DNA of 64,000 nt from Protoeuglena noctilucae (taxonomy: Eukaryota), in the NCBI GenBank assembly GCA_958009085.1, contig OY253685.1, forward strand, positions 62,001 to 126,000, in the 5' to 3' direction. Made by a program: the position numbers and the translations under genes. The notes under the pieces were generated by a model. The model saw only the letters and a list, made by a program, of their open reading frames with translations. It had not been told where the DNA came from and searched no databases. Positions 1 through 57,080 of the stretch are shown piece after piece. Position 1 is the first letter of the stretch; every line of letters starts with the position of its first letter.

Positions 1-3000
1 CCACATCCGCTCCCCCCGCCCACTCCCCGCTCTCCCCGCTGCTCTCCGGCCGCATGATAATGCCGTGCACGTGATCCAACTCCTCGCATTCCAGCACCTC
101 AATGCGAGACATGACGGGTGCCCATTCGGGGACAGGTGATGGCGATGATGGTGATGGTGGGGGTGATAGGCGGGATAGGACGTCGCGGAGGAAGCCGGAG
201 ACTAAGAGTACCTCCTCATTCGTGATCTGAGGGGGAGGTGGGAGGTGGAGGTGGGGGTTGACGAGAGGTGGTGATGCGGGTACAACGGGGTGCAGTGACG
301 AGTGGCAGAGGCAACAAGAACATCGAGTGGTGAGTAGACGGCAAAGTGGCTCATTTAATTCAAAACTGTGTTACTTGACAGTGTCTGAGTCACAGACATT
401 TCTCACCAGTGGCGGCTCCAGGGAGGGCGACGCCTTTTGGATCTCCCGGGCGCACCGCACCAGCTGCCACACGTTGACGGCCATCACGGTGCCGGGGTGG
501 GCAGTGGACCTGAAGGGAAGGCAGGGACAGCTGGTTAGTTAGCAAACAGTCGAGTGAATGAGCCATGAGGGATGGGCTCATGCGGGTGAGGTTCAATGCA
601 AGCGCAAGCCAACCGGTACACACGTCAGCATTGCGATGGACGCATGCCAGCATAATCGACACCCATCAACCACCAATATCTCACCAGTGCCACGTCTCTC
701 CCAATCCCCCCAACCCCGCGCCCCCCCTCTCTTGCACCACCCCGGCACCGCCCCCACCCTCGCCCCTCACCCCCCCCTCCTCCCTCTTAACACCCCTAGC
801 CCCGTTCGCGACACCCCCACCTCCACCCCACCCCTCGTCGTCTGTCGTTCCCAATGATGTGCTCGTGGACGCAGTTTCTGACGCTGATATCGCCTCGCCA
901 GTACGCGCGCGTGCGTGATGAGAGGGCGATGGGTCGGTGGAGGGGCGCGGGCGCTTGCGAGAGGGACGGCGAGACTGTGTGTGGGAAGGAGAGGGAGCGT
1001 TGGTGTGTTGTGATTGGGTGGGGTTGTCGTGCGGGAATGGATGAGAGTATGAGGGATGAATGACCCACAACACACCAACAGGGTTGCCATGTGCGTGTTG
1101 TTTGGCAAGTCATCATGTTGAATTGTCATGTACTATCTGCACACCCCCCATCTCCTCCTCACCCTCTCCGCCCTCTCCGCTGCCGCCCGCACCACCTCTG
1201 CCACCCTGGCTGCAAAGTACCCCTTCAGTTCCCACGGCACCGTCTCCTCGTACCACGACTGCAATCACAGATAGAGAGTAATGGTGATTGATATGAGTGC
1301 CCCTTCAGTTCCCACGGCACCGTCTCCTCATACCAAGACTGCGATTACAGATAGACACAGCAATGGTGATGAGTAGATGTGAGGAGATATGGGTAAATAT
1401 GAGTTGACATGAATGCTGAGTTGGACAGCAGCGAGGCATGAGGGATGGGAGGGGCAGGGATGTGCAAGAGTGGCCACTGTTCATGGTGGGCATGCCCTTT
1501 AACGTCATCAATGGCCACTCTTGTGTCGCAGCGGAGAGGCAAGGGGTGGGGCGCAGCTGGGTGCAACTTGGCAAGCGGGGTTGCGGGACTCACACGTGCA
1601 TGTTGGGGGAACAGATGTAGATAGCACAGCATGCACGCCACTCACGTGCATGTCGATAACACAGCAGTCATGCATGCCACTCATGCCACTCACGTGCAGG
1701 TTCCCTGGCAGCTTGAACAGCAGGCATGCGCGCTCGACGGCCGATGGCACCGCCACTGCCATCTCCCGGCATCGGGGGGCGCCCAGCAGGGTGCGTCCAG
1801 CAACCGTGAGCTCGGCCCATATGCGGTGCATGGTGTAGGTGGGGGACATGACGGGCTCTGAGAGTGGGGTGAAGGGTAAGGGTAAGATAGAGCAATGGGG
1901 TTTGCGGGTGTTGTGTTGATGACGCGGACCGTCACACATGCGACGACATGCATACGCGACGACGGCTGCCACACGTGATGTCCTTTGGCACCCGTCCCTT
2001 CTATCTGCTTGTTGTCTATTTGCAGACATCGACAATATCAATCCACTTGATTTATATTTAATCCCCCGCTCCACAATCCCTCATCCCCATCCATGGAGTT
2101 CACTCTCACTTGCACACACCCACCACCCATCCACACCAACCCACCCCATCCACCACTCATCCACCGCAATCACTTCTCACCCCCATCCATAGAGTGCAGG
2201 TCCAGCTTCTCATATCAGATACCAAACCACCTTATCCATCATCAGCCCCAACCCCCCCTCACCCCCATCTATGGAGTGCAGGTCCAGTGCCTCCTTCCCG
2301 CAGCACGCCTTGCTCCTCAGCAGAAAGGGACACCCGCACAGCCACGCCGCTATCGGCCCCGCCAGCTCCTCCATCCCCTGCTTGCGCCAGTTGCCGTCGT
2401 TGCCCAGCATCTCCGCCACTCGCAGCACATTCAAGTCGAACTGACCGGTGCCGGGGACCCAGAGGGGCCAGGCGCGGGGGTCACTCTGGAGGGAGAGGGG
2501 GGGTGGTGGGGTGGTGAGTGGTAGATGGTATTAAGGGGTTGTGAAGGGGTCACAATAGGGAAAAGGGGTGAGGATACGATTGGTCAGTGGTAGTTTTATT
2601 AACGTTCAGCATCATGCCCTCATTAACACGCACCCTCCACCACCCCTCCCTATCGCCCCCTCTTCCACCCCCCTCACCAGCGCCCCCCTGAGCATCACCC
2701 CCCCCGCACACCGCCACACGTCCGCGAACGCCCCCTCGGCCTGCCCCCTGCACCGCTCAAACACGTGGTCGCAGAAGTTGGCGTGGGGGCTGTCGTATCC
2801 GCCCAGCGTGAGCACCAAAGCCATGACCTCAGCAGCGCACAGCTCGCACTCCCCGCGGTCCCTGGGGGGATGGGGGTGGGGTGGGGTAGGGGGGTCGGCG
2901 GATGTGAGGTGCACGCGCGGGTGGGATTCATACACACATTGAGTTCCTAATCGTAACCATACTGCCATGACCAGCAGCCACGTTCATTCGAATGAAACCC

Positions 3001-5046
3001 TATCGTCCATGACCTGGCTGCCTCACCTGGGCACGGGTGGCTTGTCGGCGCGTGCGGGCGCGCAGTCCACCTGCTCTTGTCGAGAGGCGGCCTCGTGCAG
3101 GCGGACAGCGCGGGAGAGAAGGGACAGGACGTGGCTGCGAGGGAGACAGGGGGTGGATAGTGTATGGCTGCAGCACAGAAACACAGCATCGCAGTTGCCT
3201 TACTGTAGTGGCAGCAAAGGGCGTGTTGGCTTGGTCAGCACAAGCATCGGGGCGACCCCACCTTTTGTCACATACACATGACAACCATCTCCATGCACCC
3301 ATCCCAGGATCTCTCTCATGCATCTGCCACAGTCTTGTCTCGCCTGGGTGCGTCGGGGCAGTCGAGCAGCGTGTTGTAGAAGCGAGGGACGGCACAAAGG
3401 GCATCTAACAGAGCGATGGAGGAGCGGGCGTGGCGGGCAAGGGCGCGGGTCCAGTGGCCGGCGAGACTCTCCTCCGCTGTGGGGGTGAGGGTGGCAGTGG
3501 GGGTGGCAGTGAGGGTGAGGGTGGCAGTGAGGATGCGTGTCACAGCGTCACCACCACTGCGGCTGAGGTGCAGACGTGACTAGACAGCGCTGGTGCCCGT
3601 CCCATCCCACCCCATCTAATACACTCACCCATGGCGCGCGTGCACGCCCCCACCGCATCGGCGCAGGCAGCCAACGCGACCCCGACCATCGGCGCCCCCT
3701 CCTCCCCCTCCCCATCCCCCTCGCCCGCCGCCAGCCCATCTGCGACTACGCGCCACTGCTTGTGTGCCTCTTTGTCTGATGCACCCGCCGGCTGACCCTC
3801 GCGTGTCCAACCCAGCGACCACCGCAGGGCGTGAAGGGCCTGCGTGGGAGAAGGGCAAGGGCGTCATTCCTCACATATCCAAAAGCAGACGCACGACTCG
3901 GCACGACCACGCAACCCTAAGCATGCACCCACTCACTGCTAGTGAGTACAACCTACGCCACCCATTGCTCCATTCATCACAAAAGTAACAATCAGGGACC
4001 CCCACTCACGTGTGCTAGCAATGCCGCTGCGTCCACCGCGCATCTCAGGTCCCTTCGCGTGGCCTGGCTGTCGGGGTGGTTGAGGCGGGAGAGGGTGGGG
4101 AAGGAGGCAGCGGCGGTGATGCACTCGCGGGCCTGCGTGGAAAGAGAGCGGGTGATGGTGGGTGTGGGTGTCACGCAGTGATGCAGTCGCGCGCCTGCAT
4201 AGAGAGAGGGGCGGGTGATGGTGGGTGTGGGTGTCATGCGGCGATGGATGCAGGGGTCTGGGGCGGACGTGTGCGAGGGGCACTGGGAAGCTGTTGTTTC
4301 TGGATTGTCGACAATCGTGACCACCCCACCGTCTCACCAGTCGCACCAGCCGCGTCTGCAGGGCCCATCCCTTGGCCTTGAGTGCTCTCCCGACCGGGCC
4401 AGCCGCAGCCGACATGCTGCAGAGGGGGGGGGCATGCAAGCATGAAGGCCAGCACAGCGTTTGAGCCAGTGCAGTGCATCAGCCATCATCCAATTGCCTC
4501 AGCCTCCACCACGCCGCGCCGCCAGTCGCACCGGAAGGGGAGGTGCAGCAGCATCGCCAGGGCCTGGGCGCACTGGCGCGGGTGGCCCAGGTCCGGCTCG
4601 CTCAACACGCGCGTATGCCTTCCGCGACCTCCACGCCGCGGCTTCCCCGGTCTCCCGCGCAGGGCGAGCGCCAACTCGTGAGCCACGTCCTGGGGGCAGG
4701 GGCGCAGGGACTCGCGACGCGCGCGGAGGCAGAGGGGAGGGCGCGGAGGGTGCCCTGCAGGTTACCTGTATGAGATCGATAAGGTTCTTGTCCGGCAGGG
4801 CGCCGTGCGACGAGTTGGCGCGGTGGCCGCGAGACGGTTTGCCCATGCACACCTGCAGCGGAGGGCGGGCACGTCGGCGAACCTCGCTCGCGACACAGCG
4901 ATGCAGAGAAACTATTGACGGACACGCATGAGGCGCGAGACCCGAAACGGGGCCCTGCTCACCACGACGTCCCCCTCGCGGCACTCGCAGCGGGCACGGA
5001 ACGACTCCTGCGTCATCCCGCAGAGGGCCTCTACGATGTCCTGCAT
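1..5046 (-). CDS. Multi-exon hypothetical protein (>600 aa), 3' end runs off the window
   Basis: Phase-consistent exon chain 5046-4963, 4852-4766, 4689-4532, 4416-4338, 4132-4010, 3839-3629, 3476-3344 (GC donor), 3134-3027, 2861-2678, 2485-2263, 1857-1694, 1258-1163, 974-685, 509-407, 226-<1 reads without stops (MQDIVEALCG...SWYEETVPWELKGYF...ITNEEVLLVSGFL). No family recognised; start codon uncertain. Confidence 0.65.
1220..1370. repeat. 80-nt-period duplication of an acceptor plus exon start in the orphan gene
   Basis: 1220-1288 versus 1300-1370 are near-identical. Confidence 0.9.
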
Positions 5047-5615: not shown

Positions 5616-8600
5616 TCAGTCCCCGTACTTGTCCCTCCAGGGCATCCCCTGCGCACGGCTGATGGCGCCCAGCTTGGTGATCTGCTCCAGGTAGGGGAGC
5701 TTGGACAGCGCGTTGCGGGCCTGCGGGCGAGCAACAAGTGAGCCGAGGTGACTTGGCAAACTGGCACACTCGCGTGTCCCCATGCGCATGGGCCAATGGT
5801 GAATCCGCCACCGACAAGCACACTCCAAGTGTGCTATCGACAAACGCACACTCCCATCCGCCACCACCGACTCGTCACATCCGATCCACCACCCACAAAC
5901 GCACCCCCATCAGCCAACCACCCACTCCTATCGCATCCCACTCTCCCAACTCCCCAAACACCACTCCCATAGCATCCCATCCCCCCCCCAAAAGACTCGC
6001 CTCCACCGCGTCATCGAACCACCCCCTCACGACCCCCCCCTTGCCGTCCCCATACTCGATGTAGTCCCCGTGCCCCTTGCCGGCGATGACCACCACGTCC
6101 TTGTCGACCGCCGTGCCTATGGCCAGGCGTATGGCCGTGAACCGGTCCTCCACCACGTACCGCTTCACCTCGAACTGATACTCGAGCAGGAACTCCTCGA
6201 ACCAGGCCTGGGTGGATAAGAGATATGGGAATATGTATATGTAAATGTAAAAGTATATGTGACTAGTAAGGGATGGGTGGTACGCGAGCAGGAACTCCTC
6301 GAACCAGGCCTGGGGGAGTGAGTGGGGACAGACGGGAATGCGAGGGAGGTGGTAATGAGCCAAAACAGGCAACAGGAGTGGTGTAATCAACAGAGAGGCA
6401 AACATTGCAAGACAGCTAGCTATGCGTCTGTCATTCCTTCCCCCCCCAGCCCCTCTCCTCAGGCAATAAGCGGATATCAGGAGAAGCCCCCATGGACACC
6501 CGCAGAGGGGTCCGATCGGGAAGCATGACTCGTCACGGGAGAGGGGGGGGGAGACACAGGGAGGGGCTATGATAGATAGCATACACCGTCCACGCACACA
6601 CACACACACACACCGGCACGCGTATGCGGTCGACCAGCCATGAGTGCACGGACCCCGCGTGGCGGTTGCGGATCTCCGGGGGCAGCCCCGCCACCATGTC
6701 GGCGATGATCCGGTCGGGCTCCTCGGTGCGGGGGTTGTCGTTGGTGAATATCACAATGTCACTCTGGGGGTGGCAAGGGATATAGTGGGCGAATGTCACA
6801 ATGCAACACCACTGTGGGCGGAGATAAGACACCACCCCCCGCTCCTCACCTCATATCCACACCCCCCCCCCCCCCCCCCCCCCCCCCCGCTACACCCTAT
6901 CTCACCTTGTAATGCCCCATCTCCCTCACCCACACACCCCCCCGCCCCACACCCACTCCTCATCTTGCAATGCCCCCTCTCCCTCACCCACAAACCACAT
7001 TCCCCCCCACCATCTCTCACCTTGTAGTGCGCGACTTCCGCCATCAGCGGCCTCTTCCCCCGGTCCCGGTCCCCCCCGCACCCGACCACCGTGATGATGC
7101 GCTTGGCGCCCTGGCAGTCCTTTACGGCGTCCAGCAGCCGAGAGAGGGCGTCGGGGGTGTGGGCGTAGTCGACAATCACGGGGAAGCCCTGCCCCTCGTC
7201 GATGATCTCCATGCGGCCGGGGACCAGCGCCAGCTGCTCGATGCCGCCCACTGGGGATTTTGGGGGGGGGGGGGGGGGGGGGGGGGTGTAGGATCAAGCA
7301 GATGAGGGTGGTTGTGTTCAGTGACGCATGCGCGCACGCACGCTCGCACGCATGCACGGATGACACTGGCTGCACACAGACGGCTACGTTACCTCCGCCA
7401 CCCTTAGCCAAGCTCCCAATCAACCAAAATACCACCCCTCCCCCCCCCTCCCCCTCTCACCGATGGTGGGCAGCGGCACCCGCACACCCAACCATGCAGC
7501 ATAGCCATGAAACACACATCCAATTACACAAACAAAATCATGCAACACACCACACCCCCCATCTCCGCTCACCGATGGTGGGCAGCGGCACCCCCACCGC
7601 CAGCCCCGTGGCGACCGCCGCCAGCACGTTCAGGACGTTGTGCTCGCCGATGAGCGGCGTCACGATGCGCAGACGCAACACGCCGTCGTCCTCCTCTTCC
7701 CCAGTCCCCTCATCGTTATCAACACCACCACCGCCACCCCCCCTCCTCGCCCCCTCCACCTCCCCATCCCCCTCCCCCTCCCCCTCTGCTGCCTCAGCTC
7801 CCTTCTTGGCCCTGCCCCTGGCCCTGGATCGTGCTTTGCGCTTCCGCTTCGACTCGTCAAGCACGATCTCCACCTCGATCGTGCTCTCCCAGATCGTGCT
7901 CTCGACCTTGGCGGCGTACAGGTTCGCCTGCTTGTCTGTGAGGGAGAGGGGGGGAGAGGATGCAGATGAGTGGCATGCGGGGTGGACAGAGAGCAATCTG
8001 GATCATGAGAGCAATAAATCATTTGACAAGACAGCAACAGCAACGGCAACGATTGGCGTGTTAAACATGGCAGCCGGCGATGTGCCGACCAACAACAACA
8101 ACTGCACTGCACTGCCATCCATACCGCTACCCCCATCCTAACTCCTCACTGTGTCTGGCGTAGGTGACGCACGTGACGGGCCCCGCGGCGGCCAGGAACT
8201 CATCGGCATACGGGTCATCCAGATTGACCACGCATCGCTTGCGTCTGAGGTAGGCGTCCAACCGCGTCTGCTCCGCGTCCCTCTCCGATCGCAGGGACTC
8301 GGCGGCGTCCAGGTCGGCGCGGGTGCCCTGGATTTAAGGGGGAGGGGGGGGGGGGGGGGGGAGGGTTGAAGAAAGGGCTGGGGTGGGGCACGAGGGGCGG
8401 GGTGGGTAGCGGGGGGGCAAGGGGTGGGGTGGGGTGGGTAGCAGAGAGAGGGAGTGAAGTGCGAGCAGCAAAGCTTTGTCGAAACTATCCATATACTTTC
8501 CCATGTACACAGCCACCCACTCACCCTCCCCCCCCCCCCCCCCCCCCCTCGAGCCCCGCACATAATGTACACCACCACCCACCCATCCCCACCCACCGCA

Positions 8601-11338
8601 CTCCCCCCCCCCCTCCTCGCACATCACCACCGCCCACCCCCCCACTCTGTCATCCTTCATTCCATTCAGCCACTCACCCCCCCCTCGAGCCTGGCAATCT
8701 CCGCGTCCATCTCGGCCAGCCTCTCCTCGGCCTCATACACGGGCGCAGCCATGGCCTCGAACAGCATCAGCTTCGACCGCTTGTACTCATCCATGCTGCC
8801 GTGGTAGTCCAAGTGATCCTGGGTCAGGTTGGTGAACACCGCCACGTCTGGGGTTTGAGGGGGGGGGGATAAGGGTAGTGGTGGGGGCACGGACAGATGT
8901 GGAGGGCGTGCTGGGGATTGAGCAACAATCAATGGTGCGGCAAGCCGGTGGAACAAAGAAAGCATGACTATCTGACCCGCACTGCCACCAACTCCGCTTG
9001 CCCTCCGCCACCCACACACACAGTGCTTCACTCCAGCGCTCCACTCCCTTCACCCACGTCGGTGCCCGCCAGCCTCCCCTGCCGCAGCCCCACTGCTCAT
9101 CACCCATACATGCACACACACACACACCACACACACACACACACACAGCCCCCCATCTCAGACACTCACCCACGTCCGTCCCCGCCAGCCTCCCCTGCCG
9201 CAGCCCGTGCGATGACGCCTCCAGAACCGCCCAGGTTGCCCCCCTGTCCCGCATCCCCGCGAGCAGCTTGGCCATCGACACGGGCCCGGGGGTGGTGTTG
9301 GGAACCGAGTACTTGCCCCGGTAGGGCGAGATGTGGTAGGGCGCGGAGCAGGTGCGCTGTCGGGTCGGGTCGGGTTCGGTCGGCAGCCACAGCTCGCCCT
9401 CTTCGTCCAGTCGGTCTTCAGCCACCGCATACTCAATCGTCCCGATCATCCCCACGATCACGTCCGCGCTCAGCCGCGCTTCTTCATCCGAAGATCGACC
9501 GATCTCCTCCAGCACGCTCCGGATGAGCCAGGAGGTGGTGGTCTTGCCGTTCGTGCCCGTCACGGCTGGGGGGAGTGGTTGGGGGGGTGTGGTAAGTGGT
9601 GAGTGGTTATGGTGGGTGGTGACTGGCGAGGGGTGGGTGGGTGGAGGAGCAGAGCGATAGCAAATGACAACTCAGTCACAGACACCCACCCCTCATCCCC
9701 ACCCACGCTTGGTCTCACCGATGACTTGCAGGTCCCGGCTGGGCCAGTCGTAGAAGGCATTGGCCAGGTCCAGCGCCGCCTGCAGCGTGTCGGGCACCAC
9801 TAGCACGGGACACTCGCTGGGGACCTCGGGGAGAGGGCGAGACGCCACGATGGCGCACGCGCCCGCGTAGTACGCCTCGAGGGCGTAGTCGTGCCCGTCG
9901 CCCTTCTCCCCGGTCAGGCAGATGAACAGGTCCTCCGGCTGCACCTTGCGGGAGTCCGTGTGCAGGCCCAGCACCTGCCGGAGGGGGGGTTGATGCGCGA
10001 GGGAGGTGGGCGGGGGCAAGGGAGCAAGCGCAGAGCTCACAGGTTTTGGCGGATGAGTGGGATAAGTAGGATGAGTGGAAGAGCCCCCATGGAAGGAGAA
10101 TAATACGGCGTTGATGGTCATGTCTGCATCCGCACATGCGTCGAAAGCCAAGCCAGCGCCCGGCATGTACAAGTGCGTCGCATGCCACCCCATGCATCGC
10201 TCGCACCTCCACGTCCACCAGGCTCTCCGGGGCCGCCCCGCTGATGACCTCGACGCCGGCCTTGCGCAGCAGAGCCGCGAGGCGCTCCTGCCGTTGCGGC
10301 ACCGGCGGCCAGTCGCGCATCAGCACGTCGGTCGGGTTAAACCCCTCCGCCTCGGCTGCCACCTCCGCCTCCGCCCTTGCCGCCTGCTGCTCCTCGTAGA
10401 TGGACTGGAGCTGGGACTCCAATGACTCAAAAGCACCCTCGCGGGGATCGCCGGGCGCGGGAGTGGCGCCCCCGGACTGCGGGGAGGGCACGCGCGGGCG
10501 AGCGACGTCGGTGGTCGCTGCGACCGGCACCGCCAGGGCCGCAGAGACGATCGCAACAACTCCTCTCACCTCCTCTTCGGTGCTCTCGTCGGGGAAACCG
10601 GCAAATCGCTCCGCATACTGCGTCCGCGGGCGGTCGTCCTCGCCAAAAAGGTCCTCCTATGAAGAGGAAAGGGCAGGGGCTGGCTTGGACTAAAAGAGGA
10701 CGCGCGGTGAGCGCCACGGTGCAGAGCTTATGTCAAATGATGCGACAAGTGCCCCGCGGGGAGCGGCGGCGGTCGCCCAGGGCGGCGCGCAGGGCTAAGG
10801 CGACGCTGGGGCAGCCACGCTCCCCCGCGCGCGCGCAGCGGGGCCCCCGGGCCGCGCGGTCACCTGGTCAGCAATCTCATCCAGCTCGTCCTCGAAGTTG
10901 CCCTCCGCCGCCGGCATCCAGCCCGCTGCGGGCGAGGGGCGCGGGGCAGCCGCAATGGGCGTGGGCGTGGGCCTCAGCCGCGTCGCATGGCCGACACCGA
11001 TAGGGTCCCGGCGCGTGATTCGGCGCTCTGACATGTCACCATACCCGTGCGGTGTGGCACCCGCGGAAAGGCCCACGCCCGCGCTCACCTCGGGCTCTGA
11101 CTGCGAGCGAAGACCGTCCCGCACAGGCGGCGCGAGGGCGCTCTGACCCGCGGTCCCTGGCCAGCCCGGGAACCCATTTCGATGCGTACGACGTGCTGGG
11201 GGCCACCAGGTCGCCCCTGGGTCGCGAGAACGGGCCGCCAGGGGCGGGGAGAGCACCAGCTGCTGGGTGGGCCGACGCGCTGTGCGCCGCGGGGGCCGCC
11301 GATGGGGCGCGGAGGACCCCCCCTCCACCAATCGTCAT
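5616..11338 (-). CDS. murE: MurE-family Mur ligase (UDP-MurNAc-tripeptide synthetase-like), probably plastid-targeted
   Basis: Motifs [15 protein letters not shown] (P-loop), [71 protein letters not shown]. Exons 11338-11089, 10925-10864, 10656-10570, 10476-10207, 9974-9719, 9565-9170, 8847-8678, 8327-8150, 7935-7573, 7250-7021, 6763-6614, 6207-6001, 5720-5616. The Ala/Pro/Arg/Ser-rich N-terminus ending LAVRAR resembles a transit peptide; the start is inferred. Confidence 0.93.
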
Positions 11339-11908: not shown

Positions 11909-14301
11909 ATGGACCCGCTCCAGCTGCTGCGCGAGTTCGCGTGCAGCGGGCGCCTGGAGGAGGTTTCGCTCGAAGCCGAGGATGTCAAGTTCGGGTCTTC
12001 GTATAGTTTTCCAAGGTGCGCAGCTCGCAGCCACGTCCCGGCAGGCGATCGGGCCGCGCCGGGCATCCACGCGAGCCTGCGCACGCTCTCCGCGCCGCGG
12101 CCACAGCCGTCCCCGCGGCCCGGCGCAGGTCGACGCTGGTGTCGTACAAGCAGAACAAAGGCCGCGGAGACCACTACCCTCTCGAGGCCGTGGTTTATTT
12201 CATCCGGAACGTGGACCAGGCCGTCAAGGAGTATGCCGTGTACCGCAAGAACGCGTCGGGGGCGCGCGTGGCCGCCGTGCAAGTGCTGGACCGAGGAGAT
12301 CTCGCGGACTACCTGCAGGCGAGCGCGCAGAGGGGCCGCAGGATCGAGTTGCAAGGGCGCACGGCATTGCTGTGGGCTCTCCCCTGCATGCTGCAGGCTG
12401 CCGGCGCGCCGGAACCTCATTTGCGATCTCAGCATCTACCTATCTTCCCCGCGGATCTCGTTTCGTCGTCGCCCGCCCCGCGCAGGGCCGCAAGGAGACA
12501 TCCGAATGCATCCAGCCCCTCCCGCTGGCAGCCGTGCTGGTCCCCGCCCCCGAGGCCCCTGCGGCCGCGGAGGGCGACGCGGCGCGCGGGGCGGCGGACG
12601 AAGGGGAGCGGCGGCTGCTGGGGGAGGTTAGGGCGCACGAGCGTGTCCTGGTGGACCGGCTGTCGGTGCTGCGTTGCCCCAGGAAACACCTGGGGAGGGT
12701 TCTGGACATGGCCAAGCGCGTGGGGCTGCTGAGCGCGGAGGAGAGGCGAGGGGCACCAAGCGCCGCGCGTGGCGGGGTGCATACGAGGGGTGCAGTGCGC
12801 TGCTTGGGTGGCGGTGGCGGTGGATGCAAGCAAGCCAACCTTTGTTTGTGTGTGTGTTGTGTGACGCAGGAAGCGATACTTGCGGGGCCAGGCGGAGGGG
12901 CCTAAAGGCGTTCCCCCCCCCGCCCCCCGTGCCATCCCGACTGTCCCCAGCAACCGCGACAGGCGGCCCCCGGACGCGGCCTCTTACTTTGTACAGAGGG
13001 GCGTCCCGGACCCAGCCGCCCTGGGCATTGTCACGGGGGAGTCGCGGCAGGCGGGGTCCAGCAAAGTGGCCAAGGCGAGCGGCCGAGGGGGGGGGGCAGG
13101 GACATGCGAGCGAGGGCGTCCGCATGTGTACCACCCTCAGTTCGCATCGGCACTTGCTACCCATGACCCCATCTCTGCTGCTCTCCCCTGTGTATGTCAA
13201 CTCACAATCCACTGTGCCCTTGTCTCCCGCAGCGTTCGGCAGATGCCGCGCCCGCCCAGCGACCGGCAGACAAGCGGCCCCGGAAGCGCGGCTCCTCGAT
13301 CCCCATCATCGGTGCGTGGCTAAATACTAGAATCGTGCTGGCAACTGCGCAACATGTCTTGTTATGTCTAATGGATGGGAAATTGTCACCAGCATGATAA
13401 TTAGACCCACAGCATCCCTACATGTCACCCCGCCACACCCACCACCCCACGCCCCTCTCGCTGCCCCCATACCTCCTCACTCCCCCTCCCTCCCCTCTCA
13501 CCCCCCCAGTGGTCCCCAAGGGCGCCCAGGCCAAGCTGACGATGCACAACGCCCCGGAGTTCCTGGAGCAGAGTCGGTACGTGCCTGCCCTGGAGGCGAG
13601 GCAGGCCAAGGGGATCCGCAAGGACAAGATGCTCGTGGTGCGCAGGACAGTGAACAGGTGCGTCACCTGTGGTCGGCAGGCATGCGTGTCCATACGCAAG
13701 GACAAGATGCTGCTGATGCACAACCCCACCGCCCACATGCATCACGCGTCATGTGAGTTCATCACGAGTCCCGACGCCATTTCCTCCCATCCCTCGCCTC
13801 TCATCTTCGCAGGGAGGAGCCCGTTCTCTATCACGTGGTGGAGGACTTCCCCTCCGACCCCGACGAGGCCTCGCGCGTGGCGGCGTGTTTTGTGCAGGGC
13901 GCACGGTGGCAGTTCAAGGGCTGGCCCTTCAAGGGGGTCGATCGCGGGGACATGGTGGACTGCTTCGAGCACGTGAGGGGGTTCTACCTGCGATTCCAGG
14001 ACGAGGCGGTGCCAAAGGCGAGGAGAGATGGGTGGGGTGGGGTGGTGAGGAGTGGAGATGGGTGGGGTGGGCGGGAAGTGTTGTTCAAAGTGAGACGTAA
14101 GATGTCATTTCACGATGCTTCTCTCACCCTCCTTCTCTCTCCCCCCTCTCCCCCCAGGACGTGGCTTCCTGGAACGTGCGTGTCCTGACGCTCAACCGCG
14201 ACAACCGCTACGAGGACGCGGCCGTGGCTCTGCAGTTCTGGGACGCGCTGGACGAGTTCGTGTCTAGGGCAGAGCACCTGAGGGACGCGCTCACGTACTG
14301 A
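11909..14301 (+). CDS. CDC73: CDC73/parafibromin (PAF1 complex subunit)
   Basis: N-terminal MDPLQLLREF and DRGDLADYLQG; C-terminal Ras-like domain motifs IPIIVVP, TMHNAPEFLE, RVAACFVQGARWQFKGWPF, FWDALDEF. Exons 11909-12015, 12129-12318, 12486-12745, 12870-13074, 13233-13311, 13510-13657, 13813-14017, 14158-14301. Confidence 0.92.
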
Positions 14302-20766: not shown

Positions 20767-20797
<31 letters not shown>

Positions 20798-25772: not shown

Positions 25773-26486
25773 GGCCCAGCGACGCCCACGCCCTCCAAGA
25801 GTGGCGCATCGGGGGCCATCAGCCTCAGCGCTTCGGCCAATGGGGCGTCGCACAAGGGCAACGGGGGCCAGGGGGACGGCGAGGGGGTGACGCGGGGGGA
25901 CGTGGAGGCGCAGCCGCTCGTGCGGAAATAACACAGCGTGGCATGGGGTGGGTGTCATGTGCGCGGGGCATGGGGTGTGGGGTGGCAGGGAGTGAGGGCG
26001 TGTGGTAACTGCCGTGGATGTGGTGGGGGGTGTTGGGAAGCATGCAACATCCATGCATACGCTGTGGCAGGTGGGGAGGGTGGGCGGGTGCATGTGCGGG
26101 TGTTTGGTGTGGTGGACAGTGGAGGAGAGTGAAGGGAGGGCAGGAGTGCCGCCTTTCTGCGTGCGAGCGGTGCCGCGGTTGCCCTGCCCCCCCTCCTGTG
26201 CCTGGGCCTGGCAGATTGCAGCCGGGCGGTCGTGTTAGTCTGGCAGTCGGCGCAGCTTGAACCGTCTCACGACAGCTGTATGGGTGGTTAGAAGCCATGT
26301 GAGCGAAGAGAAAATCAGGGATGGGGGCAGGCACACGAAGCACACACATTCGCACCGCCGGTCCCCTGCCTGCTTTCGAGTCTCACAACAGCGTTCTTCA
26401 CACGCAACAGTGCTCTTTCAAAGCGAAACACAGAAAGGTGCACGCTTCACTTGCGTGCCTCACAACAACAAAAACCAAAGCGCGTT

Positions 26487-26585
26487 TCACGACAGGAACG
26501 TGCTGAAAAGCATCATAGGCCCTGCTGCGTCACGACAGGAACGTGCTGAACACCCCCCGTCGCGTCACGACAGGAACGTGCTGAA
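26487..26585. repeat. Three copies of a 21-nt unit (TCACGACAGGAACGTGCTGAA) covering the ilvA last codons and stop
   Basis: Identical at 26487-26507, 26530-26550 and 26565-26585. Confidence 0.9.
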
Positions 26586-40582: not shown

Positions 40583-40615
<33 letters not shown>

Positions 40616-43600
40616 CGCCTCGTCACGCACGCCACCCAGGGCGATGCGCTGCAGGGGGCGGCCCAGCACGTGGGCGACTGCGAACGGGAGGGGGGGGGAG
40701 AAATAAGGATCAAGATAGTGTGTTGGTGATGTATTGGTTATGATCAGAGCGTGGGTGAGGTGCTGCAGGGGGCGGCCCAGCACGTGGGCGACTGCAGTGG
40801 GGAGATGGGATATGGGGTGAGAGATGGAGTGAGGGAGTGAGATCATGCAGAGTGCTCTCCCTCTCTCCCTCCCCCCTCACCTGACCGCGCCAGGCTCGTC
40901 TTCTCCTCACCCAGCTACCCCCACTCTACCCATGCTTTCTCTCTCTCCCTCACCTGACCGCGCCAGGCTCGTCTTCCCCACCCCAGGCGGCCCCGCGAAG
41001 CACAGAATGGCACCCTTGGTGTCACTGCCACGGAGACGACTGCGGGATGGGAGAACGATACGGCTATTTACAGTAATAATCTCTATGTCTAGTAAATATC
41101 CCTATAACTATAATCACTTGACTGTGTGTTGTCCTCTCCATGCCTCAACACACTGCCATATCACCCCATCTCCACTCCCTCACCGCACTGCCAGGTACTG
41201 AATGATGCGGTCCTTGACCTTCCCCAGGCCGTAGTGCTCCCGGTCCAGCAGTGCACGGGCATCAGACAGCGTGCGGCAGGCGACGAGTGTGGAGGGGTCC
41301 TGGAGGGGCCTGAACGGGAATGGGGAACAAGTGGGGTGTTGAGAGATGTGCATTGAAGATGTGAGGGAAGCTGGGAGCGAAGAAAGTTGAGTCGAGTCGC
41401 ATCCAGCTTTGGTGACCCCACCCGCACCCGACATACCCGCACCCTCCCCCCCCCCCCACCACCCCTCACCTCGGCACCCCCGTCTGCTCCCCCTCCTTCC
41501 CCGCACCCCCCTCCGCCCCATTCGCAGCATTTGCAGCCTCAGTCGCCAAATCGGCCGCCCACCGCCTCCAGGGCAGCTCCGCAATCAGTTCCACGTATTG
41601 CATGGCCGCCGCGTGCCCCGGCTGCTGCTCGCCCATCTTGCGGGCGCGGCGGAGCTCACTGGGGGGGGAGGGGAAGACAGGAGGGGTTTGGTGATGGTGA
41701 TGGGTGCTTGTGGGGGAGCTGACACTATGCGAGTTGACGCATCCATGCTCGCACCGGGACCCCCACTTCACCCACCCCCACACCCACACCCACACCCACA
41801 CCCACACCCACACCCACACCCACACCCACACCCACACCCACACCCACACCCACAACCACACCCACACCCACACCCACACCCCCACCTACACCCACACCCA
41901 CACCCACACTGCTACCCCCACCCCCACCCACGCCCCCCCCATCTCACCGCATGGCCACCCTCATGACTTCCTCCGGAGGGGCCGCGGCCTGCAGTCGGTC
42001 CTGCAGCTGCTGGTACCCATCGTCGCCACCGTCACCCAGTGCATATGGGATGCCGCCGGGTGAGACGCCCCCGCTGCCCAGCCCAGCGCCGGGCGTCAGC
42101 AGGCGGGCGCGCTGGGAGGGGGCGGGGCCGGGGCGAGGGAGGCTGCGGGGGGTGGGAGATGGGTTGGGATGAACGTGGCGATGGTGGGTGAGACGGGCGG
42201 TGGTAAGTGCACAATCAAGTGTGGGTGCACAATGAAGTTGTGACTGGGTGCGGGGTGGGCGCCATGGCATGGTATGCGTGTGCAAGTGACACAGAGAGGT
42301 CGTCAGCGTGTCGACCATCGCGTGTGTCCCCCTCACCGTGCTGCCGCCCCCCCCCTCCTCCCCCCCCCCTGGATCCCCGCGAGCGTGGACCTGACCAGCG
42401 CCAGTGCCTTCTCTGCCGCCTCGATGGCCAGCTTCACGCGGCTGGTGGGGTTTGCCGTGGCGAGGGCCTCCAGGCGGTCGTCCAATGACACTGGGGGGGG
42501 TGGTGGTGAGAGAGAAGATGGATGGATAGATGGCTTAAAGAAAAGACAGAGTTGGTTGCAACACAGATGGTGAGATGCGACGCTCTCTATCGCTACCCCG
42601 CGCACCGCCACCCCGACTCACCGCACAGGACGGACAGGATGAGGTCGGCCCCCACGTGCGCCGGCACCCGCTCCAGCGCCCCGGCCAGCTCATCCGTCGG
42701 TGCCCCCGTCGCCTGCCCCACCAGCGCAAGCAGCTCTGCAACCGACCCACGCAGCGACTCCGCCAGAGAGGCGCGCACTGGGCCCTCTCCCGCTGCATTG
42801 TCGCTGTTACTGCTCCCGTTCGCTCCTCGGCCCTGCCCCTCCTCTGCTTGCTCCCCCGGCGGGGTCGGGACCAGGCCCATGGGGCTCACGCGGGCTGCGG
42901 GGGGGTGGCGAGTGCGGCGCAGGTGGTGGGTGGGGCTACTTGTCGGCAGCTGCATGCGGAGTGTTTTGCTGACCGCTGCAGAGACGACCCGTTGCCCCTC
43001 GTCTCACCCGTTGGCTACCCATAGCGTTGTCAACACTACCCCACTTACCACCCCACCCACACCTTTCACCCTAGTCTTGCCCGTCAGGTACTTCTCAGCG
43101 TTGTTTGTTCACAGCACCACCACTCCACCCCTCATCTCTCACCCGTCAGGTACCCATCAACGTCCTCAATGGCCCCCGCGCTGACCCTCCCCACCCCCTC
43201 CAGCACCACCAGATACTCCCCCGTCTCTGGCAGAAGCGTGACCTGGGACGCCCTCGCGAGCGCCGCCATCGAGTAGAGGCCGTCGGCCACGTCGCCCACC
43301 ACCGCCTCCTCCACCACCTGTGGTCGCGTTAATGGTGATACTATGTAAGTGAGTGACCAGCTTGACAAAAGAAAAGATATTGCAGAGAGATGGCGACACA
43401 GGCAGCAAGCTACCTTCAGCAAGCTACCTTCTGCTTCGCCCAGCATCACTACCGACCGACCCTCACGCTGGCCCCAGCGCGACTACCCGGGCCCGCTTAC
43501 CTGCTGGGCGGAGGCGGCGTCCATGAGGCCCCGGGTGAGAAAGGGCGCGACGGCCACGAAGCGGGGCAGGCCGCGCTCCTCCCCGGATGCGGCCAGGTGC

Positions 43601-51463: not shown

Positions 51464-54145
51464 ATGGGTTTGAGACGCATCTCCGCCACGCATGCGTCGC
51501 TTCGTGGGATAGGCGCGGCGCTGGTCCTCGTGTCCCTCGCGTATCTGGGGACGCGAGCGGCCCTTCCTTTCATGCGCGGTGAGATTCTCCCCGCGCGCGT
51601 CCCTGGCCCGGCGATCTCGCATCTGCGTCGGCTTTTGGTGTCTCCTTGACTTTATCTCATGGTCGGCCCGGACGCGACGGGCTCCGGCCGCGTCCAGGCG
51701 CTCCGGGGTCGCCTACAGCACAGGGCCGCGCATTCTGCGTCGCGCCGCGCCTTGGATCGACTTTTTTGGGATCGTCCAGAGCGTCCACGCGTCTCTTTTG
51801 CAACATGTTGTTTGCGAATGCGCTGCGCTTGCGCAGACGTGCCCCTCGACGCCGCGAGACAGGTTTTGATGTCCCCGTAAAGCACCTGGCGTCCCCGGCC
51901 CTTTCCGCAGGGGGTGTTTTGACGGATCAATGGGGCAGCATCGCGCGTGAGAATGCCGTCGTGGACGTGGACCAGGGCGCCTTCTTCGGGACGCACGGAG
52001 ACGCAACAGAGGCCCTCCCAGCGGGCGTGGACACTTGCGGTCTCCGCGGCCCCATCGGGGGCCCCTGCGGCTGTGACTACGCCTCCGTGAATCGTCTCAA
52101 TCGCGATCACGTCCACCCGATCGTGTCCTCGCTCGTCCGCACCCCGTTCTTCCGCTACTTTAAGGTCGACCTCCACTGCGACTGCCCCCTGTGGCCCGAC
52201 GACAGCATGTGGTGAGCATGCGTGGTGGTGGGCGATAGCTGGCAGCGTGGTGAGCATTGGTTGGGTAGGCCGCTGCCTCTCCCCGCCCTCTTCTCGCACC
52301 CCATGCCTGCACACATCCCCTTCCCCAACCCCCCTCATCTCCCTCCCCCCCCACACAGCGCCATGCCCACGTGTTCCGTGGACGAGTGCTGTGCCCAGGA
52401 CCCGGTTCCAGAGGCCCTCCTCCTCTTAGACAAGCAGCAGTGCGGGAGCCGAGGGGTGGCAATGGGAGAGGGTGCTGTGGACCGAGCGGTCGAGGCCGGG
52501 ATGCGCGGGGAGCGTGGCACGACGGGCGCAGCTGGGCTGTACTGGCGGGGCACGGTCAATCCCTGGCACCAGGACCCGAAGGATGAGTCCGAATGCACGT
52601 ATGTGAACCTGATCCGGAACCCTGAGAGGTACACGGGGTACCGGGGCGAGCACGCGCACCGGGTGTGGCGCACCGTCTACGCGCTGGGGTGCCTGGGGGA
52701 GGGGGGCGGGACGGCGGAGGCAGCGGCGGCGGCGGTGGGGGCGCGGGCGGCGGTGGGGATGGAGGATTGGGGGTCGCGGTGCGGGGAGGACGGGGTGGTG
52801 CTGATGCGGCTGCTGTCGGGGATGCACGCGTCGATCGCCGCCCACATCGCCAAGGGGTACCCCGTGGATGGGGGCGCGGGGGATGCGTGGGGGGAGAACG
52901 TGGGGCTGTTCCTGGACAGGTGAGGAGTGGGGTGGGGGTAGTAGTAGGAGTGGGGCAGTCATTGAAAAAGCAGGGCTGTGGAGTTGCCTGTCCCACCATG
53001 CAAGCACCGACCCACTCGCCTGCATGCATCACAACTGCCCTTCTTACGTCGCCTCACCGCAACACCCCATGACTCCTTAACCCGTCTGTCATATCCTCCT
53101 CCCCACCTCCAGGCTGGGCCGCCCCGAGCACCGCGGTCGGTTGGAGAACCTCTACTTCACCTACCTCTTCACTTTGCGTGCGGTGGTCAAGGCGGGCCCC
53201 GTGCTGCGATCGGCGGAGATCCAATCGGGTTTTACAGAGGACGATGAGAGGGCCATGGAGATGCTGGGGCGGCTGCTGGGGGACCCGGGGGCGATGGGTG
53301 CCTGCCCGGTGCCCTTTGACGAGACGCTGGTGTTTGGGGGAGAAGGAGCGGGGGAGGTGAGAGTGGATGAGACGTTGGTGTTTGGGGGAGAAGGAGCGGG
53401 GGAGGTGAGAGGGTGTGGGGGGGAGGTGACAGTGGGAGGACTGTAGGTTGCGAGGGGTGCCATCCCATGACTTGCTCTAGTTTTTTATCTTTCGTTCACA
53501 GCATGCACAAGTCTTACCCCAACCCTGTGTAACACACATTCCCTCACGTCCCTCCCCCCCCCAGCGCAAGTCCCGCGTGCAGTCTGCCTTCCGCGCCATC
53601 ACGCGCGCGATGGACTGCGTGGGGTGCGAGAAGTGCAAGCTGTGGGGCAAGCTGCAGGTGCTGGGCATGGCCACGGCACTCAAGGTCAATTTCCATGAGT
53701 CGGAGGGAGGGGAGCTGTCCCTGGACCGGAACGAGATGGTGGCACTGGTCAACTTCCTGGGAAGGCTGTCGAGCTCGCTGGAGGCGGTCAGGCATTTCAG
53801 GTGAGGACTGAGATTGGGCTAGTGAGATGATGTGATGGTGATGGAGGAGTGGGATGGTGCGATCTTGTGACAATGTGATGATATGGTCGGCAGTTTATCA
53901 ACTGTCAGTGACAGGAAGTCGCTGCCAATCCTACCTCACTCAGCCCACCTCACTCTCCCCTTCGCAGTCCCCACGTGTTGGATGTGGAGGCGCGGGGCGG
54001 CTGGGCCCATGTCCCGAGCACGGGCACATGGGACCCTGTGCTGGGGGAAGTGGCACTGCCGAAGCCGACGCTCACGACAATCAACCCATCCGCGGCCAAG
54101 GCGGACGCGTGGGGGGCGGGGGCGGGCAGGACGAGCGTGTTTTGA
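51464..54145 (+). CDS. ERO1: Endoplasmic reticulum oxidoreductin 1
   Basis: N-terminal hydrophobic signal/anchor; FFRYFKVDLHCDCPLWPDDSMC, YVNLIRNPERYTGY, RLLSGMHASI, ENLYFTY, MDCVGCEKCKLWGKLQ (CxxCxxC). Confidence 0.95.
53318..53411 (+). repeat. 48-nt tandem duplication of an ERO1 exon end plus donor
   Basis: GACGAGACGCTGGTG...GAG|GTGAGAG versus GATGAGACGTTGGTG...GAG|GTGAGAG. Confidence 0.92.
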
Positions 54146-54381: not shown

Positions 54382-57080
54382 TCACCAGTAGATGCCCATT
54401 CCCAGCCACTGAGGGTCCTGCTCGACCATCCAAGGGGCCTTGTTCAGCAGAACCCTGCGAGGGTGTGAGTGCAATAGAGACGCTCTGTGCATGGCCTCCA
54501 TCGGCTGTGCTGTGCTGTGCAACCCACCACTCCCTCACCCTCTGCCATTCCCCTCACCTCTTGCACCCCTTGGCCGCCTCCCTCAGCACCGCCCGCCGCC
54601 TGTCCGGCCGCACCGCCCCCGCCTCCTCTGGGAACCACACCCCAGGCTCTGAGACGTAGAGAGAACTCAAGACTCGGTAATTATGACTCAACAACACTTG
54701 ATGGGTCAGGTGACAGAGTTTCTTGACATGCTGGCCCTGTGCTGGTACCCTGGTATGGTACGACGGACCATCGTGAAGCAAGCATAGTACTACACAACCA
54801 ATCAAACAACCAACAGCTTGCCATCCTCAGGGGCCCAATCACTTTGACCATTCCTCGTGCTGCCCCTCACCCGTCTGCCCCCTTGCCACCTCCAGTGCCA
54901 CGGCTGCCGTGCACGCCCCCACAGACTCGCTCAGCTTGTCGTGCACCCACAGACCCACGGCCGCCTTGCCGTCCTCGAACTGCGACAAAGGGACATGAAA
55001 AAAGGCTCTCTTTGATCCCAGAGAGGGTGTGACTATGTCCGTTGTCGATTGCTGAGCGTAGAGAGGTCCCTGCCATTGCGGGCCCCATCCCGCACCCCCT
55101 CACCTCCACATCCACCCGCATTGCCACCTGCCCCTCACCTCCACATCCACCCGCATGGCTACTTGCTCCCCCGCGATCGGATCCAGCGCCCGCACCAGCG
55201 GCCCCAGGACCTTTGTTAGCCCCCGGACCGCATCGGGACTCTGCAGCACGTTCCTTGGCAGCAAACGTGCTGCCAGCACCATGCCCCAGTTCCACACCTC
55301 CGGGGCCGTACCGAACCGCGCCGACAAGCTCGGGACGCCCAGGTTCCTGAGAGGGGCGGGAGCAGGGCATGCAGGAGTGAGTTGACAAAGAAAAGCAGCC
55401 CATGATTTGTTTCAGCTGGGTGGACGATGGGTGGAAGACAATGGGTGGAAGGGGTATATTATGTGGGGTGTCGGGACATGCTATGCTTACTACTGCATCG
55501 GTTCTCATGGGTGGATTCTCACGAGTGGCGCTACCGCACATGCCCTCTGTGAAATCATTGTTTCACCGGTCCAACCACCCTGTGCCTCGCCTGTGGCAGG
55601 AGATGACCTCTGGCAGGTTGTAGAGGTATACGGTCTTGCGCCCCACCCCGGGGCCAAAGTCCACGACGCGAGGGGAGCTCACGGGGGGGAGGGTCTTCTC
55701 CTCACCGTCCAGGAACACTGCGAGTGTGATGCGAGGGGGGTGTTTGTTGTTCAAGGGTGCTCCAGGGTGCCCAGGGTGGTCACAGTGGGGTGAGGGTAGG
55801 GGTCAGCGTCACACGACATGGTGAAGCGACAGAAGGCGAGGATGGCAATGGACACTGGTTGAGTGCAACAGTCGGTGTTTCCCACCCCACCCTCGCTCCC
55901 CACCTGTCACGTCTTCCCCCGCCAGGAGCAGACTCGTGTCGAGGATGGTGGGCCCTGCGCCGCCCGTGCCTGCCGTGAAGTAGGAGAACAGGAGACGCTG
56001 CGAGGGGAGACAGAGAGGGCATTGGACACTGCAACGGTACACGTGCCTGACACTGCATGGCGCCCTCTCTGCCACCCCGCGTGCCCCTCACTGTCCCTGC
56101 CACTGCCCCCGCCCATCTCCCCCGCTCTCACCTCACCATCTGCACCACATGCATCCACCTCCGCCCATCCGCTCACCTTGGCGCGGGCAGTGGCAACCGG
56201 TGTCCCGTCGCTGCCCACGCGCGCCGACGCAAGCATCTCCGCGGCCATGATGTTGGACACGCCCGGGTAGATACCCGCGGTGGTCACGCAGGGGACGCCT
56301 TTGGCTTTCGCCTCTTTGTGAAGGGCCTTGCAGGCCATGGCGGTTGACGCGTCGTCACAAACGTCCACGTAGGCCCTGCCGGCCGCGATGCACGCGCGGA
56401 GGACTGCGTCAGAGCGAGCGACACGGATACGGGTCATAGGGAGCGTGGCATTGTGAGGGAGGGCGCCTGGCCGGCGTGAGAGTCAGCCTCACCGGAGGTT
56501 GGGTCACGGCTCCGCTGGAAAGGACCCGCGCAATGCACCACGACGTCGCAGTTGCTGATCGCGGCGAGCAGGGAGCGCTCGTCCGTCGCGTCGCACTGCA
56601 CAAAGTCGCAGGGTCCCAGCGATGGGCGCAGCTGCACCGCGGCCTGCTGGCTCGCACGAGAGCGCCCCGCCAACACGACCTTCACCCCGTCCTCCGCCTG
56701 GAGAAGGCTCTGCAGGAACGATCCAAGGACACGGCACCGAGATCGGCTTTCGGAGGGCCCCGTGCGGTGCCCGGCCAACGGATCGCCACGCACACTCGGC
56801 AGGGGCTGCCGATGGCGCGACTGGCCTGCGCGGTGGAAGCCCCGACGCGCCCGCATCCTCCCAAAACAAGAACCGTCTTCCCCGCCGCGGAGGCGCCTCC
56901 AGCAGATCCCTCCGCGCCCCGCGACGCCGTTGATGGCTCGGCACCAACGCGCACGCGATGCGCGGCTACGCGTGCGCGAGCTGGCCCCCACACGATGGGT
57001 CCCGACGGACTTAAGTGAGGGCATCCAAGCGCACATCTGCGGGTCTGACCGCCCGCACACGCCGTCAGGGGCCCCGCCAT
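54382..57080 (-). CDS. Saccharopine-dehydrogenase-like NAD(P)-binding oxidoreductase, probably plastid-targeted
   Basis: Rossmann VLVLGGCGRVG, VVHCAGPFQ, YVDVCDD, GIYPGVSN, YFTAGTGGAGPTIL, PGVWFPEE, NKAPWMVE; nine exons. Confidence 0.88.

Follow-up and report, generated by a model that had tools for sequence, protein, structure and literature searches.

Local duplicates of exon edges and their splice motifs inside the introns of a Protoeuglena noctilucae genome window

Results

A gene-packed window in which exon edges recur inside introns

The window analysed here is one 64-kilobase (kb) stretch of the Protoeuglena noctilucae genome on contig OY253685.1, with a G+C content of about 65% and closely packed genes that carry many short introns. 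Its genes contain short direct repeats in which the edge of an exon, usually together with its splice motif, occurs a second time within the neighbouring intron. The curated gene model comprises 19 genes; its 136 introns have a median length of about 150 nucleotides (nt), and 112 of the approximately 136 modelled introns measure at least 70 nt. The gene model used has a minimum exon of 30 nt, mis-models GC-AG introns and recovered 6 of 14 known introns exactly; for three genes, the models were replaced by hand on the basis of RNA and homology. Within the first 20 kb, 13 introns are confirmed by RNA contigs of three marine metatranscriptome runs; four of the 13 have GC-AG ends and belong to a single gene. 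The genes hit by the repeats are eight in number and encode an unnamed protein, MurE, a Cdc73-like protein, a TPT transporter, a threonine dehydratase, Lon, ERO1 and a saccharopine-dehydrogenase-like protein, which agrees with the eight unrelated genes counted in a sequence-only reading of this DNA.

That reading had listed 16 repeat pairs, with coordinates that are mostly repeat starts or plus-strand splice-motif starts rather than junctions. All 16 were re-measured without gaps (pairs are written real/copy throughout), and 15 are true direct repeats of 17-60 nt that are 82-100% identical, with a pooled identity of 478/513, or 93% (sum over the 15 pairs). The remaining pair, 8673/8520, is weak and was left out of this sum; its edge query scores 15, a value reached by 1 of 60 null draws. 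The copy is displaced from the real site by 35-116 nt, or by 150 nt for third copies, and repeat lengths span 17-75 nt across all measures (ungapped and BLAST). Fourteen of the approximately 136 modelled introns hold a copy, or roughly 1 in 8-10, close to the one in eight estimated from the letters alone.

The repeats exceed chance and concentrate at exon/intron borders

A uniform repeat scan of the window (spacings of 12-300 nt, mismatch penalty of -3, complexity filter) yields 17 complex clusters at a score of at least 16, compared with 0 in each of 20 block shuffles of the window. At a score of at least 20, there are 16 clusters, two of low complexity and 14 complex, and all 14 complex repeats touch an exon/intron border. 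As a null for this contact, the geometry of each repeat was slid along the window and only placements with a non-coding spacer and one non-coding copy were kept; per repeat, 28% to 49% of them touch a coding edge (mean 35%), and the product over the 14 repeats is 3.7e-7. These figures bear out the claim of local duplication crossing exon/intron borders. At the lower threshold, 14 of the 17 clusters touch a splice border, and the other three are the repeat at 13614, which lies 13 nt away from one, a repeat at 14295-14366 and a repeat within a MORN protein. The second of these is a 30-nt direct repeat with an offset of 42 nt that spans the modelled stop codon of the Cdc73-like gene and the beginning of its 3' untranslated region, and it is the sole local duplicate of its class away from a splice junction.

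In line with the scan, a self-BLAST of the window at any distance gives eight matches, and all eight are these pairs. Specifically, when 20-nt exon-edge queries are compared with their own intron, 9 of 112 donors and 6 of 109 acceptors reach a score of at least 10, against 0.4 and 0.3 expected from other introns. Exon-interior queries, taken 50-78 nt from the edge, reach a score of at least 12 in 0 of 96 and 0 of 88 comparisons with the intron. The scan finds 0 complex inverted repeats at the same threshold, and the repeat tool returns only inverted repeats with poly-G/poly-C arms or with arms at most 89% complementary. Exon sequence, 10 nt or more, is part of every duplicate, and intron-only duplicates are absent. 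Short-period tandem repeats of 12-33 nt do occur within introns.

Copies are arranged in tandem or around a unique spacer

Two layouts can be distinguished (Table 1). In the tandem form, which accounts for about half of the cases (1216, 4082, 6880, 25202, 26477, 28095, 53318 and 55096), a whole unit of 35-80 nt is repeated two to three times. In the spaced form (2176, 6179, 7443, 9050, 24623 and 40648), repeat, unique spacer and repeat follow one another, and the pair at 40861 is intermediate, with 52 of 73 nt aligning. Reading of the alignments of seven spaced pairs shows that their high-identity core consists of 21-37 nt of exon and only 3-7 nt of intron, the latter being the splice motif itself. 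Both copies carry the splice motif, with its GT or AG kept. The exception, 13614/13692, had been described as a donor-less copy, and this description holds with its exact core and an exon end that is fixed by an RNA joint.

The Lon intron 40678-40953 carries both a donor copy and an acceptor copy, which together enclose about 90 nt that resemble a complete small intron. At the 5' end of intron 1259-1693 (1597-1693), two more repeats, short and decayed, of the final 5-6 exon bases and the donor motif lie at about 48 and 98 nt, below the thresholds used; they suggest older rounds of the same process.

Table 1. Exon-edge repeat pairs in the window. Matches are identical/aligned positions in ungapped comparison unless stated; a junction is written as its two flanking positions; offsets are in nt; TRF, Tandem Repeats Finder.
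Positions	Strand	Type and gene	Offset	Pair (real/copy) and matches	Junction	Location of real part and copy; remarks
1216..1370	-	acceptor copy, near-tandem	80	1220/1300, 55/60; BLAST 88% over 75 nt	1258/1259	real copy 1216-1288 spans junction; copy 1296-1370 in intron 1259-1693, AG intact
2176..2287	-	donor copy	82	2258/2176, 28/30		real copy 2258-2287, exon from 2263; copy 2176-2205 in intron 1858-2262; 52-nt spacer unique, unlike flanks
4082..4246	-	acceptor copy, tandem		4113/4175, 33/36; BLAST 80% over 105 nt	4132/4133 (modelled)	crosses junction; about 2-2.6 units; TRF 4116-4236, period 63 x 1.9, 88% matches
6176..6317	-	acceptor copy, MurE	102	6179/6281, 33/34	6207/6208	real 6179-6212 across junction; copy 6281-6314 in intron 6208-6613; 68-nt spacer unique, AT-richer
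6880..7030	-	donor copies, tandem, MurE	115	7016/6901, 20/23	7020/7021	TRF period 58 x 2.5; middle copy present; last unit spans junction
7433..7597	-	donor copy, MurE	112	7568/7456, 38/43, core 26/26		real 7555-7597, exon from 7573; copy 7443-7485 in intron 7251-7572
8517..8684	-	doubtful donor copy		8673/8520, 14/15		G/C-rich low complexity; outside confirmed count
9050..9206	-	donor copy, MurE	116	9166/9050, 39/41		real 9166-9206, exon from 9170; copy 9050-9090 in intron 8848-9169
13614..13722	+	partial copy without donor	78	13614/13692, core 17/17, 26/31		exon stretch 13614-13644 ends 13 nt short of donor; recopied 13692-13722 in intron 13658-13812
24623..24732	+	donor copy, TPT transporter	78	24623/24701, 29/32	24647/24648	copy 24701-24732 in intron 24648-24876
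25202..25304	+	acceptor copy, tandem-like	68	25279/25211, 24/26	25281/25282	copy 25211-25236 in intron 25060-25281; spacer duplicated too, z = 5.3
26477..26588	-	donor copies, three tandem units, threonine dehydratase	periods 35, 43	27/27 between two units	26588/26589 (modelled)	starts at modelled donor; exon-end part recognisable by eye only, in third unit
28095..28288	-	donor copies, three tandem units, threonine dehydratase	spacings 70, 80	28263/28113, 23/28	28267/28268	first unit spans true donor; gene model wrongly took one copy as mini-exon
40639..40795	-	acceptor copy, Lon	114	40648/40762, 34/34	40677/40678	copy 40762-40795 in intron 40678-40953
40861..40983	-	donor copy, same Lon intron	73	40949/40876, 30/30; BLAST 88% over 52 nt with gaps	40953/40954	copy 40874-40903
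53318..53413	+	donor copy, exact 48-nt tandem (in frame), ERO1		53318/53366, 42/43	53356/53357 (likely)	
55096..55166	-	donor copy, exact 35-nt tandem		55134/55099, 33/36	55138/55139 (modelled)	copy donor 55103/55104

The outer splice sites are the ones in use

Independent support for the junction is available for 11 border-touching repeats and for the partial copy at 13614, from RNA contigs, a 100%-identical spliced protein and the residue numbering of homologues, and it places the copies within introns. The outer sites are chosen in every checkable case. The RNA evidence consists of assembled contigs, in which rare isoforms would be hidden; 15 of 41 joints are listed, and uncovered parts are uninformative. 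One RNA joint, from 482 to 17216, was left out because its 23-nt side is a repeat match. All three RNA runs contain the joint from 1857 to 2263, which shows use of the outer donor of 2258/2176, and the donors of 7016/6901 and 9166/9050 follow from RNA exon pieces at 7021-7249 and 9170-9565. The exon end for 13614/13692 is set by the joint from 13654 to 13810 (cut +3). For 1220/1300, the acceptor is fixed by exon 1163-1258, as deduced from the piece lengths of a 590-nt RNA contig (X9 record 18) and the joint from 974 to 1163.

In MurE, homologues lack no residues across the joins from 9171 to 8848 (P0001, residues 349 to 350) and from 7574 to 7251 (P0002, 413 to 414), and they are likewise continuous across 7021 to 6775 and 6614 to 6207 (P0002, 539 to 540). 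Because the homologue residues run on without a gap, the MurE copies between these joins are non-coding. For the TPT transporter, the spliced protein P0196, taken from a public collection, matches the exons at 100% identity and connects 24647 with 24877 without anything in between. The same protein reads past the exon end at 25059 into the acceptor-copy intron (25060-25179), and its transcript contig therefore kept at least the first 120 nt of that intron. Junction 25282 is given by the gene model together with the alignment of homologue P0197, which is 57-71% identical.

In Lon, homologue P0075 runs from residue 740 to 738 across the intron between 40954 and 40677, and the Pfam AAA profile ends at position 17 in one exon and restarts near 19 in the next. 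By the numbering of 8y1j (solved threonine-deaminase chains), the first threonine dehydratase exon runs to about residue 275 and the following one begins with residue 276, placing the exon edge at 28268; on this exon end the sequence-only reading was right and the gene model wrong. In ERO1, Pfam profile position 276 falls at residue 82 of the exon, where the first 48-nt unit ends, and the next exon continues from 277. The upstream donor is likely the real one, because the second 48-nt unit contains no profile positions. The junctions at 4132, 26589 and 55139 are taken from the gene model.

Both copies are present in independent DNA

Both copies of six pairs (1216/1296, 2176/2258, 4116/4179, 6179/6281, 7443/7555 and 13614/13692) lie on one contig in the metagenome of another study, with 0 differences except for a 1-nt gap at 7440, upstream of 7443/7555. 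The covering metagenome contigs include 1-2660 (1216 pair), 3503-6582 (4082), 7297-7711 (7443) and 9671-20000 (13614), and this comparison covered pairs up to position 20000. An assembly artefact is unlikely for these six pairs. The copies of 9050/9166 fall on separate metagenome contigs that are not bridged; 6880-7024 lies outside the listed pieces. The metagenome run X5 also contains many contigs at 90-95% identity, taken to represent a sister population.

Metagenome contigs also cover a G-rich 12/18-nt minisatellite at 3476-3535, at the 3' end of intron 3477-3628 (a pyrimidine tract on the sense strand). They contain many alternative joins and extra letters in this minisatellite, and its copy number therefore varies in nature.

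Strength of the copied sites and properties of their introns

By position-weight score, the copied sites are as strong as the real ones, as the decoy sites of the sequence-only reading had been said to be. Examples for donors, given as real/copy, are 6.3/6.0, 5.4/5.7, 8.1/8.1 and 7.9/7.9, and acceptors score 8.7/7.1, 5.6/6.8 and 8.1/6.3. The predicted unpaired probability is 0.42 for real sites and 0.39 for copies (Wilcoxon p = 0.75), and masking of the copies by RNA structure is accordingly unsupported. The 15 primary offsets distribute as 5/4/6 modulo 3, with no bias towards multiples of three. In five in-frame cases, the added segment is free of stop codons (24648-24725, 53357-53404, 6208-6309, 40678-40791 and 4133-4195); chance is estimated at a few per cent, a hint from a number of cases that is too small.

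Copy-bearing introns are 159-435 nt long, with a median of 266.5 nt compared with 144 nt in the other 121 (p = 3e-7), which fits the earlier claim that the copies lengthen introns. The introns are rich in G where they begin and rich in C where they end: 64% of G-runs of at least 6 lie within 40 nt of a donor, and 87% of C-runs of at least 6 lie within 40 nt of an acceptor. A G-run of this size within 40 nt of the donor is found in 6 of 10 donor-copy introns and in 8 of 125 others (p = 7e-5).

Homopolymer runs of up to 27 nt occur in introns (8328-8677; also 6862-6888 and 7262-7286), G-rich after the donor and C-rich before the acceptor. In intron 8328-8677, about 20 G in a row near one end are complementary to about 22 C in a row near the other, and pairing of the two runs in the RNA could draw the intron ends together.

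Neighbouring gene features and annotation

A complete gene for MurE, the peptidoglycan precursor ligase, with about 10 introns lies at 5616-11427 in this green alga, and it is expressed in three marine metatranscriptome runs. In a protein search, it comes closest to unnamed environmental proteins (64-70% identity) and, after these, to green algae (Pedinophyceae, 61%); the MurE of the window itself is absent from the protein collection, in which the top match is 70% identical. A scan of metagenome contigs with a MurE exon gave 80 loci, all at most 67% identical and apparently bacterial MurE, and no close algal relative among them.

In the Cdc73-like gene, four of eight RNA-confirmed introns have GC-AG ends (12319-12485, 12746-12869, 13075-13232 and 14018-14157). 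GC donors make up 34 of 136 in the gene model, an unusually high share that misleads gene finders. Additionally, ab initio models turned copies into false in-frame mini-exons at 9054-9092, 28118-28170 and 6286-6309, resulting in duplicated peptide stretches, and automatic annotation of the P. noctilucae genome is likely prone to the same false mini-exons.

Discussion

A proposed recurrent local duplication across splice junctions

Taken together, these findings lead us to favour, with moderate confidence, the reading that the copies are scars of recurrent and recent local DNA duplication straddling splice junctions. According to this proposal, an exon edge of 10-43 nt with its splice motif would be copied a second time into the intron side, at a distance of 35-116 nt, while DNA is replicated or a break is mended, and the duplicated piece would take along 3 to about 60 nt of adjoining intron. 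The outcome would be either a clean tandem unit of 35-80 nt, in up to three copies, or an arrangement of repeat, spacer and repeat. Candidate routes include strand slippage, fill-in of a staggered break with or without captured filler, and microhomology-primed copying that proceeds from a splice-like motif into the exon. The outer site is still in use in every checkable case, so that the mRNA stays the same and the inner copy and the spacer are spliced out as intron; the copies would persist because splicing still removes them. As a net effect, introns would grow from their edges and gain full-strength look-alike splice sites. The G-run on the donor side, the only measured clue to the border concentration, would fit fragile or slippery G/C tracts beside splice sites. 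The proposal is also in line with break repair in transformants of Ostreococcus tauri, a marine green picoalga, where joins carry long direct target duplications with inserts of 55-83 bp of unknown origin, an arrangement that matches repeat, spacer and repeat (PMC8002553). Those scars, within the part of the paper that deals with them, arise from experimental integration of foreign DNA, include a 518-bp duplication in one line and are given no link to splice junctions (PMC8002553); P. noctilucae is a distant relative of that species.

With offsets that show no multiple-of-three bias, the copies look like passengers. Weak, decayed copies show almost no excess over expectation, and the high identity of the pairs suggests a young age and a loss through deletion instead of gradual decay. 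We infer from the pooled identity and the scarcity of decayed copies that the process is active, as had been claimed. Templated insertion by polymerase theta draws on a template within about 100 nt, leaves microhomology at the junction and produces both direct and inverted copies; the distances found here fit, and the splice motif of 3-7 nt might have served as microhomology, but no inverted copies were seen in the window.

Several observations weigh against local duplication of this general kind. Spacers of 20-80 nt are unlike either flank in 9 of 10 pairs tested by spacer-flank alignments against shuffles, and these nine are not simple decayed tandems, because the spacer resembles neither flank. 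Decay of former tandem units is thus unsupported as the origin of the spaced form, with one pair in ten exceeding shuffles, although low-complexity slippage could mask old homology. An intron part of just 3-7 nt would rarely be expected from a randomly placed duplication. C-runs show no association with acceptor copies (1 of 5 compared with 27 of 130), which leaves them unsupported as drivers of these copies. No purely intronic or intergenic duplicate of at least 30 nt was found in the window. A detection bias against low complexity is rejected as the reason, since 92% of intron 32-mers are complex enough to pass the filter. A generic copying error combined with a selective filter fails to account for the missing intron-only duplicates, and a border-specific element is missing from that account. 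The duplication events are also unpolarised, and the evidence base is a single window. With about half of the cases tandem and half spaced, the copies may stem from one process or from several.

A possible mechanism specific to borders

One alternative is a border-specific mechanism coupled to transcription or splicing, in which the splice sites themselves would provoke breaks or template switching. It might act through R-loops, through polymerase pausing at the G-rich 5' end of introns, or through repair primed by the splice motif, with copying from the motif into the exon. The contact of all 14 complex repeats with a border, the presence of at least 10 nt of exon in every duplicate with no intron-only example, the seven spaced pairs that combine 21-37 nt of exon with little besides the motif, and the association of donor copies with G-runs all speak for it. 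On the other hand, acceptor copies do not go with C-runs, the tandem cases hold long intron parts as ordinary duplications do, and the sample, 15-16 events from a single window, is small. We regard this mechanism as possible but rather unlikely on present evidence. In a bolder form, duplication would be physically tied to junctions, with breaks or template switches at the G-rich 5' and C-rich 3' ends of introns, which may be linked to transcription or splicing, and with copying from the motif into the exon. Introns would grow outward from their edges as the exon edge is copied again and again, and would keep seeding full-strength alternative sites and in-frame extension segments genome-wide; we put this forward tentatively, as rather unlikely.

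Selection as a possible reason for keeping the copies

Retention of the copies by selection appears improbable, whether they served for recursive or stepwise splicing, for the tuning of splicing by decoys or as alternative sites that yield isoforms. Such retention would be in keeping with copied sites that score like real ones, with the five stop-free in-frame segments, with the length of the copy-bearing introns and with the AG that precedes GT at many exon ends, which, by our reading of the alignments, makes the donor copy resemble a ratchet site. Recursive (ratchet) splice sites and decoy exons are AG/GT-like sites or pseudo-exons within introns that are conserved and functional and belong to very long animal introns. 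Like these, the copies are intronic sites that a spliceosome can engage; they differ in being young copies of exon edges within introns of 159-435 nt, and RNA contigs, like P0196 for the TPT transporter, show the outer sites only. Selection is further disfavoured by the even spread of offsets modulo 3, by the occurrence in eight unrelated genes of housekeeping type, by the equal RNA accessibility of real and copied sites, and by an identity pattern that is like that of young neutral copies, few of them decayed.

Intron birth as a possible origin

Even less probable is that the repeats record the birth of the introns, either by tandem duplication of an AGGT-containing piece or by an insertion that break repair left between direct repeats. 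The passages on intron gain of PMC3443670, PMC3265369 and PMC2891723 treat the two models as established, and direct repeats near splice sites are described as widely reported in the corresponding part of PMC11782384. In every pair of the window, however, both copies lie at one end of the intron and do not bracket it. The copy sits 35-116 nt inside an intron of 159-435 nt, with more intron beyond it, and does not abut the other exon; intron length never equals the repeat offset, and RNA and homologues put the acceptor far past the copy.

In the AGGT model, as the intron-gain passages of its sources present it, an exonic piece is tandemly duplicated and a new intron begins with the GT of the first copy and ends with the AG of the second (Hellsten et al. 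2011, PMC3265369; Lehmann et al. 2010, PMC2891723; PMC3443670). The two situations share a short local direct duplication that doubles splice signals, with the extra copy spliced out and the coding sequence kept. They differ in that an existing junction is duplicated here, the old outer site is used and the intron is only lengthened; moreover, half of the repeats are not tandem, about one tenth of introns are concerned and the location is exclusively at borders, none of which forms part of the model as those passages set it out.

Direct repeats that flank introns, as described in the relevant sections on Daphnia (PMC3443670) and by Rogers and Bendich (2025, PMC11782384), measure 4-30 bp (mean 11.4), with one at each end of the intron. 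They resemble the present repeats as direct repeats at exon/intron borders that are taken as repair scars, whereas the repeats here are 17-75 nt long, have both copies at one end and provide the inner copy with its own splice site.

Transposons and assembly

Target-site duplications of an introner or other transposon are very improbable. Introners are common in marine algae, and the spaced pairs look like an insert with its flanking duplication; according to the portion of PMC9860276 on these elements, they lengthen or create introns in such algae, and their target duplication can supply a splice site. The same portion depicts multi-copy families with short, fixed target duplications (PMC9860276), and no family exists among the 136 introns of the window, for which an all-against-all BLAST gave 3 marginal rows with 2 distinct matches of 21-27 nt. 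The spacers are unrelated to each other, apart from one motif match between two spacers that was not found again; the duplications differ in length (17-75 nt) and lack terminal inverted repeats. Least probable of all is an artefact of haplotype merging, mis-assembly or chance low-complexity matches, which could draw on the end of the independent comparison at position 20000 and on the low complexity of 8673/8520, but is opposed by six pairs with both copies on contigs of another study, by the 0 clusters in 20 shuffles and by the passage of all counted pairs through the complexity filter.

Implications

The search of full-text literature, with subscription journals and supplementary files outside it, found related mechanisms and no description of exon-edge copies at such density, in accordance with what the sequence-only reading had supposed. 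The logic is shared with known intron-gain models; the differences lie in the geometry, the repeat size, the coexistence of tandem and spaced forms and, above all, the density and the exclusive location at borders. As a practical warning, gene finders make the copies into false mini-exons.

Rare and old events are the usual basis for arguing about intron lengthening and the origin of new alternative splice sites, both of them open questions. In this window, about one tenth of the introns hold a young, readable event of one geometric kind, located at junctions only, and the interest lies mainly in the unexplained border specificity and in the natural competition between splice sites. If the pattern is true genome-wide, P. 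noctilucae would offer hundreds to thousands of dated natural experiments on a DNA mechanism that copies junctions, and these would also test how the spliceosome chooses between locally identical sites 35-116 nt apart.

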